From a virus (Duplodnaviria > Heunggongvirae > Uroviricota > Caudoviricetes): a stretch of 30,441 bases of DNA. Shown one piece after another: positions 2,078 to 5,380 of this stretch. The stretch lies in the IMG/VR virus record IMGVR_UViG_2563366799_000003; one strand, written 5' to 3'. Position numbers and translations under genes: made by a program. Numbering within the stretch: the first letter of the stretch is position 1; the number at the start of each line of letters is the position of its first letter. The notes under the pieces were generated by a model, which searched no databases, was not told the DNA's origin, and was given only the letters and a program-made list of their open reading frames with translations.

Positions 2078-3016
2078 ATGACGCAAATTAACCATGATGT
2101 TGTGCGCAGTGCCATTCGTGAACTTATCGACAGCAAGACGATTTCCGGTGCAGCGCTGGCGCGTGAGACCGGTACATCAACCGCGACGGTTTCACAGTTC
2201 CTGAACGGGAAATACAAAGGTGACAATGACACCGTAGCTGCCAGCCTGAATACCTGGCTTGAAAGTCACAACGCCGCGAAAACCACGCTTCCGGTGGCCC
2301 CTGATTTCGTTGAGACACCGACCTCTCAGAAAATCCTCGCCACCCTGACGTGGGCGCAGCTGGCCGGGACGATTGTGCTGGTTTACGGCAATCCGGGCGT
2401 GGGTAAGACAAAGGCTATCCGGCAGTATGCCGCAGGCGGTAATAACGTCTGGCACATCACCGCCAGCAAATCCCGCAGCAATGAGCTGGAGACCCTGTAT
2501 GAACTGGCCCTGAAAATGGGCATCAGCGATGCGCCATACCGCCGTGGTGCACTCTCTCGCCTGCTGCGCCAGCGTCTGCCGGACACGCGCGGCCTGATAG
2601 TGGTGGATGAAGCCGACTGGCTGAGTCTGGATGCGGTGGAAGAGCTGCGTATTCTCCAGGAGGAATGTGGCGTGGGGCTGGCACTGGTGGGTAACCACAA
2701 GGTCTATGACCGTCTTACCGGCGGCCAGCGCAGCGTGGATTTTGCCCGCCTGTTCTCCCGCGTGTCCAAGAAGTACGTCATCAATACCGTTTCCGCTGGT
2801 GACGTGGACAGCTTCTGCGATGCCTGGCAGGTCACCGGCGCTGACGAACGCAAGCTGCTGAAGGCTATCGCCCGACGTCCGGGGGCGCTGCGTTCTCTGT
2901 CGCACATCCTGCCGCTGGCCGGAATTTACGCTCAGGGCAAGGGTGAGACCATTGGCACGGCGCACATCCAGTCCGCCATGCTGGAGCTGGGCCACAGCGG
3001 TATCGGAGAGGAGTGA
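2078..3016 (+). CDS. B: Mu B-type transposition ATPase (AAA+ target DNA activator)
   Basis: 312 aa, directly downstream of A; Walker A GNPGVGKT and Walker B LIVVDEAD; N-terminal HTH-like segment; ATG at 2078 preceded by an AT-rich leader. Confidence 0.9.
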   Translation: MTQINHDVVRSAIRELIDSKTISGAALARETGTSTATVSQFLNGKYKGDNDTVAASLNTWLESHNAAKTTLPVAPDFVETPTSQKILATLTWAQLAGTIVLVYGNPGVGKTKAIRQYAAGGNNVWHITASKSRSNELETLYELALKMGISDAPYRRGALSRLLRQRLPDTRGLIVVDEADWLSLDAVEELRILQEECGVGLALVGNHKVYDRLTGGQRSVDFARLFSRVSKKYVINTVSAGDVDSFCDAWQVTGADERKLLKAIARRPGALRSLSHILPLAGIYAQGKGETIGTAHIQSAMLELGHSGIGEE

Positions 3017-3020
3017 CATC

Positions 3021-3260
3021 ATGATCGCCGAACGTATTGCAGAGCACATCAGCATGGCAGAAGCGGCGCAGAACTGGCTGCGTGCGCGTGGCAGTCGCGT
3101 GACTGACGTTCGGGTGTTTATGCGTCGCCCGCTGCTGGAGATTGCCTGCCCGCCGGTTGAGCTGCTTAACAGCGCAGAGCGCATTGCTGAATCACACAAC
3201 GGTGGCACCCGCTCCGTCTGGGTCGCCAGTCTGGAAGGTTGCCGGATTATCTGGAGGTAA
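3021..3260 (+). CDS. hypothetical early protein (79 aa)
   Basis: Internal ATG of ORF 2943..3260, 4 nt after the B stop, with GGAGAGGAG ribosome-binding site; occupies the Mu semi-essential early-region position. Confidence 0.5.
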   Translation: MIAERIAEHISMAEAAQNWLRARGSRVTDVRVFMRRPLLEIACPPVELLNSAERIAESHNGGTRSVWVASLEGCRIIWR

Positions 3261-3262
3261 GC

Positions 3263-3553
3263 ATGGGGTGGAGAACGGGTAAAACATGGTCCCCCGAAGA
3301 GCTTCGCATTCTTGAGCAGAGTGCAGGGAAAGTCAGTGTTATCGGGCTGGCTCAGCAACTGGGACGTACAAAACAGTCCGTTCAGAATTGCGCTCTTCGT
3401 CTTGGACTGTCACTGCGTATTCGTACAGAGGACGAGCATGATGCGTATTTATGCCGTGAGCTTTATAAGGAGGGGCTGACCGTTGCGATCATCGCAGAAA
3501 AAATGGAAATGTCCCGTCGTCAGGTTTTTAACATCGTTTATCGCGACAGCTAA
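3263..3553 (+). CDS. hypothetical early protein, possible small HTH DNA-binding protein (96 aa)
   Basis: ATG 2 nt after the upstream stop (ORF-track start 3239 is a TTG overlapping the upstream gene); contains HTH-like segments LAQQLGRTKQSVQNCALRLG and TVAIIAEKMEMSRRQVFNIVY. Confidence 0.5.
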   Translation: MGWRTGKTWSPEELRILEQSAGKVSVIGLAQQLGRTKQSVQNCALRLGLSLRIRTEDEHDAYLCRELYKEGLTVAIIAEKMEMSRRQVFNIVYRDS

Positions 3554-3567
3554 CTTAAAGGTTTTTT

Positions 3568-3843
3568 ATGACTGAGAAACAGCAATCAATATTAATCGCT
3601 TATGCGTGGGCCAGCGGGCTGATTGAATTTGGTCAGACACTCCCGGAAGGCGCTTTACCTATCGCGAGCGCCCGTCATCACAAGCGGCTCCGGGAGGTCA
3701 TAAATGTTTACGCACGCCACGGATATGCCCCTGGGCAGCTACTGGTTCCGGGGATTCCTGAAGCAGCCACCCAGAACGAAGCCGGAGTGGCTCTGACAAA
3801 GTTCTGTTTTTATGTTGAACGCGCATTACTGAATAAGGATTAA
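3568..3843 (+). CDS. hypothetical early protein (91 aa)
   Basis: ATG with AAAGG ribosome-binding site; tightly packed in the early operon; no recognisable family. Confidence 0.5.
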   Translation: MTEKQQSILIAYAWASGLIEFGQTLPEGALPIASARHHKRLREVINVYARHGYAPGQLLVPGIPEAATQNEAGVALTKFCFYVERALLNKD

Positions 3844-3847
3844 AACA

Positions 3848-4099
3848 ATGGCTAAACAGGTTATCACCATTGTCATTGAGGATGGCATCGTTCAGAAAAG
3901 TGACAAATCAATTAATAACGAACTACCTGAAGGGAAACTCAATATTCAGTTTCATCTTAATAACACAAATGATGATGGTTCATTTTCGTTTCTGGTTGCT
4001 GAAGGTCTGTCAGCTATTTTCCCGATGGCGATCCAGCAGGTCACCACGTTTGTGAAAGCAAGGGTGGAGCAGGATAACCGTAAAATAATCAAACACTGA
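3848..4099 (+). CDS. hypothetical early protein (83 aa), visibly AT-rich
   Basis: ATG with AAGGA ribosome-binding site 4 nt after the upstream stop; more AT-rich than flanking genes; immediately upstream of gam. Confidence 0.45.
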   Translation: MAKQVITIVIEDGIVQKSDKSINNELPEGKLNIQFHLNNTNDDGSFSFLVAEGLSAIFPMAIQQVTTFVKARVEQDNRKIIKH

Positions 4100-4106
4100 G
4101 GTTGAT

Positions 4107-4634
4107 ATGAAAGCACCTAAAAAACCACGAGCCAAGTCTGCTGCGGCAGTGGCCGTTCCGCAGTCACGTGAAGACGTGATTAACGATATCCGAAAAATTG
4201 GCGACATCACCCGTGTCATTTTGCGCCGTGAAACAGAACTGAATGACAAACTGGCCGAGCTGACTAACGACGCCGCTCCCGGAATTGAAGCGCTCAAGAA
4301 AGAGCTGGGCCGCTTACAAACTGGCGTCCAGACGTGGTGTGAAGCCAACCGTGCAGAGCTTACGAAAGACGGTAAGACCAAGACGGCCAACCTGACAACG
4401 GGCGAAGTTCGCTGGCGTAAGCGCCCGCCCAGCGTCACCATTCGCAAAGTTGAAGATGTTATTGCGTTACTCAAGAAATTCAGCCTGGGTAAATTTCTTC
4501 GCAATAAAGAGGAAATTAATAAAGAGGCAATTCTTGCATCACCGAATGAAGTTAAGGGAATTGCAGGGATATCCATTAAATCAGATGTTGAGGATTTTGA
4601 AATAATCCCATTTGAACAAACTGTAACTGATTAA
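4107..4634 (+). CDS. gam: host-nuclease inhibitor Gam (Mu Gam / Ku-like DNA-end-binding protein)
   Basis: 175 aa; strong similarity to Mu Gam as recalled (basic N-terminus, VPQSREDVINDIRKIGD, GVQTWCEANR, KTKTANLTTGEVRWRKRPPSV, EINKEAIL, IIPFEQ); GAGG ribosome-binding site. Confidence 0.9.
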   Translation: MKAPKKPRAKSAAAVAVPQSREDVINDIRKIGDITRVILRRETELNDKLAELTNDAAPGIEALKKELGRLQTGVQTWCEANRAELTKDGKTKTANLTTGEVRWRKRPPSVTIRKVEDVIALLKKFSLGKFLRNKEEINKEAILASPNEVKGIAGISIKSDVEDFEIIPFEQTVTD

Positions 4635-4723
4635 TTAACTTTCTTTGATTCTCAGAATTTTAATACGGTATGCCTGCCGGGGCTTCGTGCACCCGCAGGC
4701 AACTAAATATGGAGTTTAAGCGA

Positions 4724-5380
4724 ATGACCAGGCATACGATTATCAATATCCAGCAGATACGTGACGATATCTGCAAACGTAAAGCAATGCCGCCATTTGG
4801 CCCCGATACCAGTATTAATCGTCTTAAAACTATCAATGAGACCCAGCGCAGTTTCACTCTTGAAGTCGTGGAATTGTTGCTGGGTGAAATAGACGTCCTG
4901 TCAAAATCAGAATGGACACTGGCGGATGAACTGGTCAAGGCCCAAAAACGCATAGCTGAGCAGGAACGCACTAACACCGCCCAGGACGATCACATCAATC
5001 AGCAGGCAGACCGTATCGAATGCCTGGAAAAGAAAAACGACGATCTGGGCAAAGCTATTAGGGCCGCACTTCCATCGTTTTCACTGTCACCAGCAGCATC
5101 TGATGTTCTGGCCGAGCGCCAGCGGCAGATATCGGTTAAGGGGTACACTACACAGCAGGACGACACATATATTGAAGGTGAGCTGGCCGCAGCGGCTATA
5201 AGTTACATAGAGCCTTTGGCGGCTGAAGAATACTGGCCTGCTGACTGGCATGATGACAGTTTCAAACCGTCAGACTATCGTCGAAATTTAGTGAAAGCAT
5301 GTGCGCTTTTGATTGCAGAAATTGAGCGTATTGACCGCCAGTCGGAGGGAAATAACGATGAGTCGCGCATCCCTGATTAA
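4724..5380 (+). CDS. hypothetical early protein: coiled-coil N-terminal half plus acidic, Trp-containing C-terminal domain; tentatively Ea22-like with a nucleotide-pyrophosphohydrolase-like C-terminus
   Basis: ORF 4670..5380; ATG at 4724 preferred because it has a GGAG ribosome-binding site 9 nt upstream, whereas the 4670 ATG lies inside a hairpin; heptad-like segment VELLLGEIDVLSKSEWTLADELVKAQKRIAEQER. Family assignment is unverified recollection. Confidence 0.45.
   Translation: MTRHTIINIQQIRDDICKRKAMPPFGPDTSINRLKTINETQRSFTLEVVELLLGEIDVLSKSEWTLADELVKAQKRIAEQERTNTAQDDHINQQADRIECLEKKNDDLGKAIRAALPSFSLSPAASDVLAERQRQISVKGYTTQQDDTYIEGELAAAAISYIEPLAAEEYWPADWHDDSFKPSDYRRNLVKACALLIAEIERIDRQSEGNNDESRIPD

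Follow-up and report, generated by a model that had tools for sequence, protein, structure and literature searches.

Four small early genes between B and gam in a Mu-like Escherichia coli prophage

What do the small genes encode that lie between the transposition gene B and gam in the early region of a Mu-like phage? We addressed this question in a stretch of 30,441 nucleotides from a tailed virus (IMG/VR record IMGVR_UViG_2563366799_000003; hereafter the window), which represents a Mu-like transposable prophage of Escherichia coli. Here, four short open reading frames (ORF1 to ORF4) fill the interval between B and gam. An earlier note on this DNA, made from its letters, had described them as tightly coupled genes with no recognisable family and had proposed them as candidate host-takeover or anti-defence cargo. 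We find that the locus is mostly ordinary: it is one version of the semi-essential early region of Mu, and kil and a counterpart of Mu gene 9 are where one would expect them. Its remaining two genes are a member of a large family that is probably misnamed (ORF3) and a rare AT-rich gene (ORF4).

Four genuine genes in a Mu-like early region

The chromosomes of E. coli ECONIH4 and of one other strain match positions 2900–4700 of the window at 100% identity, and that of a third strain matches at 99.9%. In ECONIH4, the annotation runs from a repressor and a ner-like helix-turn-helix (HTH) protein through transposase (A), AAA ATPase (B) and four ‘hypothetical proteins’ to Gam, followed by a further hypothetical protein, gp16/GemA and Mor. 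In the window, Pfam recognises MuB, Gam, GemA and Mor. A megablast search of positions 2900–4700 against phage records returned no match, and the element is known solely in prophage form. The interval very likely opens the semi-essential early region of this Mu-like transposable prophage, with its parts identified as set out below.

All four ORFs are genuine genes. Each of them matches a PHROG family, with E values from 1e-25 to 1e-56, and has homologous proteins at the same locus in other prophages. The suggestion of four tightly coupled-looking small genes between B and gam held up to the exact coordinate: the ORFs coincide with the coding sequence (CDS) calls of RefSeq in the identical ECONIH4 prophage, they are separated from one another by gaps of 2–14 nt (4, 2, 14, 4 and 7 nt in order from the B stop at 3016 to the gam start at 4107), and a purine-rich Shine–Dalgarno-like stretch lies just 5′ of every one of them. 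One could still suspect that some are chance open frames, because the ORFs are short, homologues of ORF4 are scarce and the structure model of ORF4 is of low confidence. However, the conserved same-position homologues of all four proteins in other prophages, a ratio of nonsynonymous to synonymous substitution rates (dN/dS) of about 0.2 for ORF4, the regular spacing with ribosome-binding stretches and the four matching CDS calls of RefSeq make this exceedingly improbable.

kil and a gene 9 counterpart

ORF1 aligns with phrog_2743 (‘Kil protein for bacterial septation inhibition’) over profile positions 1–75 of 75 at E = 8.7e-36, and BLASTP gives 55% identity to Mu Kil over all 74 amino acids (E = 2e-28). 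It starts at 3021, directly after the B stop at 3016, and in Mu kil (4315–4539) likewise follows B (3358–4296). In precomputed tables, the 79-residue ORF1 homologues of relatives are annotated with Pfam PF26843 (Kil_protein). Our own scans of ORF1 against Pfam and NCBIfam gave no match, the Pfam result being empty because PF26843 is missing from the version scanned, and a phmmer search of the PDB found nothing at E ≤ 10. Mu Kil (gp5, also called cim; PHROG 2743, Pfam PF26843) and ORF1 thus have similar lengths (74 and 79 residues) and the same place after B, and they differ in that ORF1 carries five additional N-terminal residues. Judged by sequence and position, ORF1 is an orthologue of Mu Kil.

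A comparative study lists kil among the semi-essential early genes with a host-killing role (PMC4553209), and the Mu record describes Kil/cim with primary references; the genes of the Mu semi-essential region have been described as largely uncharacterised (PMC3820752). By homology, ORF1 would be an early host-killing protein that disturbs cell morphology and damages the host early, as in Mu. The earlier note, which had placed the four genes at the position of Mu’s semi-essential early region (‘kil and similar’), therefore came near the truth, since the first of them is kil itself.

ORF2 shares 46% identity with Mu gp9 over 87 amino acids (E = 2e-25) and matches phrog_323 (‘transcriptional regulator, D5-like’) at E = 3e-25, the family to which Mu gp9 also belongs. 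The HTH-like segments that had been noticed in this gene were borne out: residues 67–94 match Pfam HTH_23 with 29 bits against a cut-off of 24.6, residues 14–43 give a weaker HTH_11/MarR_2 signal, and the precomputed domains of close homologues agree with the HTH assignment. The protein is basic (isoelectric point 9.1) and is conserved in Mu, D108, SfMu and Klebsiella phage Kp4866-3; a phmmer search of the PDB gave chance-level matches only (E ≥ 0.07). With nearly the same length as Mu gp9, formerly E8 (96 and 95 residues), the same HTH content and a position between kil and gam, ORF2 can be assigned as the orthologue of gp9 on the strength of its sequence. The difference is one of arrangement, in that gp6, gp7 and gp8 intervene between kil and gp9 in Mu, whereas ORF2 adjoins kil here. 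ORF2 is most likely a DNA-binding protein with a minor regulatory or accessory role.

The statement that the four genes belong to no recognisable family was thus wrong, because all four match PHROGs at the E values given above and two of them are orthologues of named Mu genes.

Of note, the apparent absence of an ORF2 homologue from the RefSeq annotation of strain ECONIH5 is a missed gene call. An intact 96-residue homologue lies at 3364–3654 of that locus (L003, NZ_CP026202.1), inside an open reading frame spanning 3340–3654, in a gap of 305 bp between kil and the ORF4 homologue that RefSeq leaves unannotated.

Table 1. Genes of the B–gam interval and its constant flanks (window coordinates).
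Feature	Position	Strand	Basis
Mu B transposition ATPase gene, constant flank to the left of the variable block	2078..3016	+	Pfam Phage-MuB_C (E 2e-22), AAA_22 (E 2e-17); RefSeq CDS in ECONIH4
ORF1, 79 aa, kil, orthologue of Mu gp5 Kil by similarity	3021..3260	+	phrog_2743, Mu Kil similarity, position
ORF2, 96 aa, predicted small two-HTH DNA-binding protein, orthologue of Mu gp9 (E8) by similarity	3263..3553	+	phrog_323, Pfam HTH_23
ORF3, 91 aa, phrog_1518 early-gene family, database name ‘host nuclease inhibitor protein’	3568..3843	+	phrog_1518
ORF4, 83 aa, AT-rich lineage-restricted gene directly upstream of gam	3848..4099	+	phrog_18464
gam, Mu Gam-like DNA-end-binding protein, constant right flank	4107..4634	+	Pfam Phage_Mu_Gam (E 1.3e-36); phrog_491 (E 8e-63)

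ORF3 belongs to a large family

ORF3 matches phrog_1518 at E = 1.2e-34. Its 145 close clusters come mostly from Salmonella prophages, none of them has a Pfam domain, and NCBI calls most of the named ones ‘host nuclease inhibitor protein’. A profile search of 1.84 billion representative proteins extended the family to 1030 clusters (at 50% identity) at E ≤ 1e-3, of which 592 reach E ≤ 1e-10. Nearly all members are stand-alone proteins of 80–110 amino acids; a few carry unannotated extensions, and one is a tandem duplication. Across 95 diverse members, R50 and E65 are invariant, within a near-invariant motif that reads AYxWASGxIEFG ... P.GALPI ... ARH ... LLVPG[IV]PEA.

Searches with the sequence placed ORF3 in no described domain family. 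Neither Pfam (at E ≤ 1) nor NCBIfam contained a match to ORF3, the 95 diverse members produced chance-level Pfam matches only, each from a single member, and in the PDB ORF3 had no phmmer match at E ≤ 10 and the family profile a best E of 0.62. The AlphaFold2 model of ORF3 is compact and confident (predicted local distance difference test (pLDDT) score 91.5), with three strands, a helix, two short strands and a long helix. Foldseek found nothing at E ≤ 1e-3 for this model, whether among PDB entries or among viral models. MbtH-like proteins are the best fold match, at 9% identity and with a marginal score, and share neither motif nor biological context with ORF3.

Below the threshold, GIY-YIG/Slx1 and Bro-type proteins recurred among the fold matches. 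ORF3 might on this basis be a degenerate GIY-YIG-like or Bro-N-like nucleic-acid-binding or nuclease domain, with Arg50 and Glu65 as remnants of the catalytic Arg and Glu. Every one of these matches falls below significance, however, and the Foldseek search of the PDB was empty. Moreover, 0 of the 95 diverse members match the GIY-YIG, T5orf172 or Bro-N models of Pfam at E ≤ 0.1, and the predicted order of strands and helices in ORF3 is unlike that of GIY-YIG (strand, strand, helix, strand, helix). We therefore regard a degenerate domain of this kind as highly unlikely. Separately, we had considered ORF3 as an Acb2-like nucleotide sponge, a lead suggested by its size and by the Mu-like phages of Pseudomonas, and rejected it for lack of a sequence or fold match in the PDB.

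Two family members, P0251 and P0152, have N-terminal extensions that resemble ASCH/PUA-like domains by eye (for example, ‘ISLWQPWASAMAVGSKRIETRGW’); Pfam gave no match to them at E ≤ 0.01.

Gam or DUF3164 near ORF3

The closest counterparts of ORF3 in phages are the small ‘host nuclease inhibitor’ proteins of Casadabanvirus from Pseudomonas (for example, JBD69 gp14 and MP38 ORF13; PHROG 1518), which share about 50% identity, size, motif and an early location near gam with it. The arrangement differs, in that the JBD69 gene lies two genes downstream of gam and ORF3 upstream. In total, 75 records of the phage collection contain an ORF3 homologue; 65 of them are from Pseudomonas, and those examined are of the D3112 type, such as JBD69. 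Other carriers are the Stenotrophomonas transposable phage phiSHP3, a Mu-like element in a Stx2c phage and Burkholderia phage KL4. In KL4 (L091, NC_047958.1), the family gene (4013–4276) lies about 1.5 kb upstream of an exoVIII/RecT pair, and this lambdoid-type phage, with its repressor, CII-like regulator, exonuclease VIII and RecT, does not look transposable. The ORF3 family is thus not strictly confined to transposable phages.

To place the family in its genomic setting, we retrieved 80 IMG/VR loci and mapped the Mu genes onto them; the set contains 51 distinct ORF3 alleles. Wherever both flanks were captured, B and GemA bracket the ORF3 homologue, which places it in the early region. Gam is found within about 1 kb, on either side, in 23 of the 51 alleles, and within 100 bp in 12. 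A further 25 alleles lack Gam although their loci extend for 1.5 kb or more to each side, and every one of them has DUF3164 no more than about 1.7 kb away; the ORF3 homologue of phiSHP3 also has DUF3164 nearby (locus L090, 2908–3531). In transposable phages, the distance from the family gene to the Gam/DUF3164 slot thus stays within about 1.7 kb and is mostly far shorter. Examples of DUF3164 occur among the IMG/VR loci L007–L086 (such as L013 4022–4639 and L015 5565–6182) and in a Klebsiella phage locus (L006, 4043–4663). Gam and DUF3164 look like alternatives for one slot because the Gam-bearing ORF3 loci gave no DUF3164 match, which suggests that DUF3164 may be a functional alternative to Gam in Mu-like phages.

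Taken at its word, the database name would make ORF3 a true inhibitor of the host nuclease RecBCD, or a cofactor of Gam in protecting linear phage DNA ends. Both NCBI and PHROG use the name, gam lies less than 100 bp or less than 1 kb away in the fractions of alleles given above, and ORF3 weakly matches the C-terminal part of phrog_18351, a profile of 298 residues whose N-terminal part is Gam. Yet ORF3 does not match Phage_Mu_Gam of Pfam at E ≤ 1, nor do any of 95 family members at E ≤ 0.1, and searches with the predicted fold, a small beta-alpha fold, returned neither Ku nor Gam. Around half of the alleles reside in phages without any Gam, the alleles do not co-vary with the type of partner, the C terminus of phrog_18351 is heterogeneous, which weakens the fusion argument, and the searchable literature gave no experimental paper for such an activity. 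We consider it unlikely that ORF3 is a nuclease inhibitor or Gam cofactor in this sense.

We had also read phrog_18351 as a fusion of Gam and ORF3, and JBD69 gp13 and gp14 as paralogues. This was withdrawn, as gp13 and gp14 are not homologous although both match the C-terminal part of phrog_18351. When the ten longest proteins within the top 150 representatives of the ORF3 family were checked, none was a Gam fusion.

ORF3 is unrelated to Gam by sequence or fold. What it shares with Mu Gam and other Ku-like DNA-end-binding proteins (Pfam PF07352) is a place in the gene neighbourhood and a database label; it differs from them in sequence and fold, and it occurs equally in DUF3164 phages. The ORF3 family is therefore best described as large, uncharacterised and probably misnamed.

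ORF4 is rare and AT-rich

ORF4 matches phrog_18464 over its full length (E = 7e-56), and the family comprises only 14 clusters among 5.8 billion proteins; tblastn against 50,697 phage records gave no match. The AT-richness that had been pointed out for this gene is real: its GC content is 40.1%, compared with a window mean of 53%, which places it at the 2.9th percentile of 252-bp windows. Its dN/dS values against four homologues range from 0.09 to 0.52, consistent with a protein under purifying selection. The N-terminal third is variable and the C-terminal half conserved, and ORF4 lies immediately upstream of gam in all five contexts seen. Pfam and NCBIfam contained nothing similar, phmmer found no PDB match at E ≤ 10, and the AlphaFold2 model is unusable (pLDDT 52.7).

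ORF4 would be a recently acquired, AT-rich accessory gene that is kept by purifying selection and serves as strain-specific cargo. Among the four genes, ORF4 alone truly qualifies as candidate strain-specific cargo, for instance as an anti-defence factor.

A relationship of ORF4 to Mu gp7 (E6, 87 amino acids; window 3848–3871 against L001 1785–2048) was also considered. Both begin with MAK(Q)VI.I, end in His and are of similar length, but neither BLASTP nor hhalign detected significant similarity, and the relationship is unproven.

Gene exchange among relatives

Close relatives of the element carry or lack ORF2, ORF3 and ORF4 independently of one another, with kil and gam fixed on either side. 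The full order kil–ORF2–ORF3–ORF4–gam is that of the window and the identical loci. ECONIH5, L088 and L089 have kil–ORF2–ORF4–gam, L087 has kil–ORF3–ORF4–gam, and an alternative ORF3 allele (ORF3′) appears as kil–ORF2–ORF3′–gam in L014, L024 and L029 and as kil–ORF3′–gam in L011 and L028; Klebsiella phage Kp4866-3 has kil–ORF2–DUF3164. ORF2 is thereby absent from L011, L028 and L087, and ORF3 is cleanly absent from ECONIH5 and L088. ORF3′ is only 49–52% identical to ORF3, compared with 87–97% for Kil and 88–95% for Gam at the same loci.

At the DNA level, homology to the relatives breaks and resumes at gene boundaries (3260, 3541–3544, 3848 and 4092–4096). ORF2, ORF3 and ORF4 would accordingly be units that are swapped as whole-gene cassettes between kil and gam by recombination at gene borders. 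The comparison of gene content that the earlier note had called for thus reveals independently exchangeable cassettes, which fits accessory cargo. The pattern itself is ordinary phage mosaicism, and it is compatible with accessory, fast-changing functions and does not prove them.

Anti-defence and host takeover

How much remains of the proposal that the block is family-less cargo for anti-defence or host takeover, with at least one of ORF2, ORF3 and ORF4 inhibiting restriction, CRISPR or a similar system? In its favour, these are small early genes with Gam as a neighbour, and close relatives differ in which of ORF2, ORF3 and ORF4 they carry. At 49–52% identity, the ORF3 allele is more diverged than the genes flanking it (87–97%), ORF4 is AT-rich and rare, and PHROG files the ORF3 family under ‘moron, auxiliary metabolic gene and host takeover’. 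That category, however, derives from the unsupported name.

Against these points, the proteins have no sequence similarity to solved structures, among which are deposited anti-defence proteins (anti-CRISPR, Ocr/ArdA-type and nucleotide sponges), and ORF3 has no significant fold match either. ORF2, being conserved in Mu, D108, SfMu and Kp4866-3, resembles a DNA-binding protein, and ORF3 is nearly universal in transposable phages that bear Gam or DUF3164, unlike sporadic counter-defence genes. Overall, the sequence and PDB searches for ORF2 to ORF4, together with the fold searches for ORF3, yielded no sign specific to anti-restriction, anti-CRISPR or host shut-off. We thus judge an anti-defence role for at least one of the three genes possible and, on balance, doubtful. 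As for host takeover, the proposal is supported for Kil only, by homology; for ORF2 to ORF4, nothing specific to host shut-off emerged.

Layout and neighbouring features

Co-transcription of the four genes on the early (Pe) transcript, together with A, B, gam, gemA and mor, is most likely because they are part of an uninterrupted tight run on one strand from A and B through gam, gemA and mor, and by analogy with Mu. Judging from the spacing and from Mu, translation may be handed from gene to gene. Within the run from B to gam, no promoter-like or terminator-like sites exceeded the shuffle expectation; an Rfam scan of the window gave zero matches, and a repeat scan of the interval gave nothing meaningful.

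A minus-strand open frame of 388 amino acids at 2192–3358 lies opposite B, kil and the start of ORF2. It sits in the most GC-rich part of the region (59–64% GC), and we take it to be a shadow frame and not a gene. Within gam, positions 4503–4532 hold a tandem pair of 15-nt repeats, AATAAAGAGGAAATT and AATAAAGAGGCAATT, probably a small in-frame duplication of five codons.

The gene after gam (4670–5380; RefSeq start 4724) matches phrog_9763 at E = 5e-112. Its product has a C-terminal domain of about 100–140 amino acids that recurs in nine or more other PHROGs of unknown function. A segment that resembles this domain by eye makes up the N-terminal portion of P0167, which has an ORF3-family domain as its C-terminal portion.

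In ECONIH4 (L002, NZ_CP026399.1), the Mu-like prophage adjoins, at 1635–2171, a truncated tail assembly gene of another prophage of the lambdoid type, which suggests transposition into a resident prophage. For a related Mu-like element, the annotation gives an insertion within a Stx2c-converting phage (L005, LC727881.1).

Discussion

Our best guess for ORF3 is a small binding protein that would act in the same early DNA-end or recombination-related step as its neighbours. Its target, in the host or in the phage, would be one that Gam-type and DUF3164-type phages have in common, contacted through a surface around the invariant Arg50 and Glu65. Extending this, we tentatively propose that the ORF3 family carries out an early function that is widespread among transposable phages, has gone unrecognised and occurs now and then in temperate phages of other kinds. 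This function would be tied to that of the DNA-end module (Gam or DUF3164) and might, for example, neutralise a host factor or defence that attacks linear DNA on infection or the intermediates of transposition. Independently of this, ORF4 could be a counter-defence gene specific to the strain. This is a possible account and not the expected one.

Several points weigh against the account given here. The proposed role of ORF3 draws on gene neighbourhood only. Its alleles do not cluster by neighbour type, mean identity being 0.51 within the Gam type, 0.58 within the DUF3164 type and 0.52 between the two, which argues against a specific physical pairing of ORF3 with either neighbour and makes one with Gam unlikely. 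Mu, D108 and SfMu are without the family, which makes it dispensable for the Mu-like lifestyle. Beyond ORF3, the function of Kil is carried over from Mu at 55% identity, and the Pe transcript and translational coupling draw on Mu and on gene spacing. Finally, the searchable literature gave no experiment on ORF2, ORF3, ORF4 or their homologues, and no functional study of Mu gp9, of the ORF3 family or of the ORF4 family.

Four proteins that RefSeq lists as ‘hypothetical’ can now receive more precise names. The label ‘host nuclease inhibitor protein’, which is attached to thousands of small proteins, has no detectable basis in Gam homology; if ORF3 is indeed tied to the DNA-end module, the name would be either accidentally right, through a new mechanism, or simply wrong. 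The relatives described above amount to a natural experiment, as they provide prophages that differ cleanly in ORF2, ORF3 and ORF4 between a fixed kil and a fixed gam and that can be compared directly. The sole lead worth following from this locus is the ORF3 family: large, strongly conserved and tied by position to the Gam/DUF3164 slot, it offers a cheap and well-defined target for discovering what else transposable phages need early in infection.

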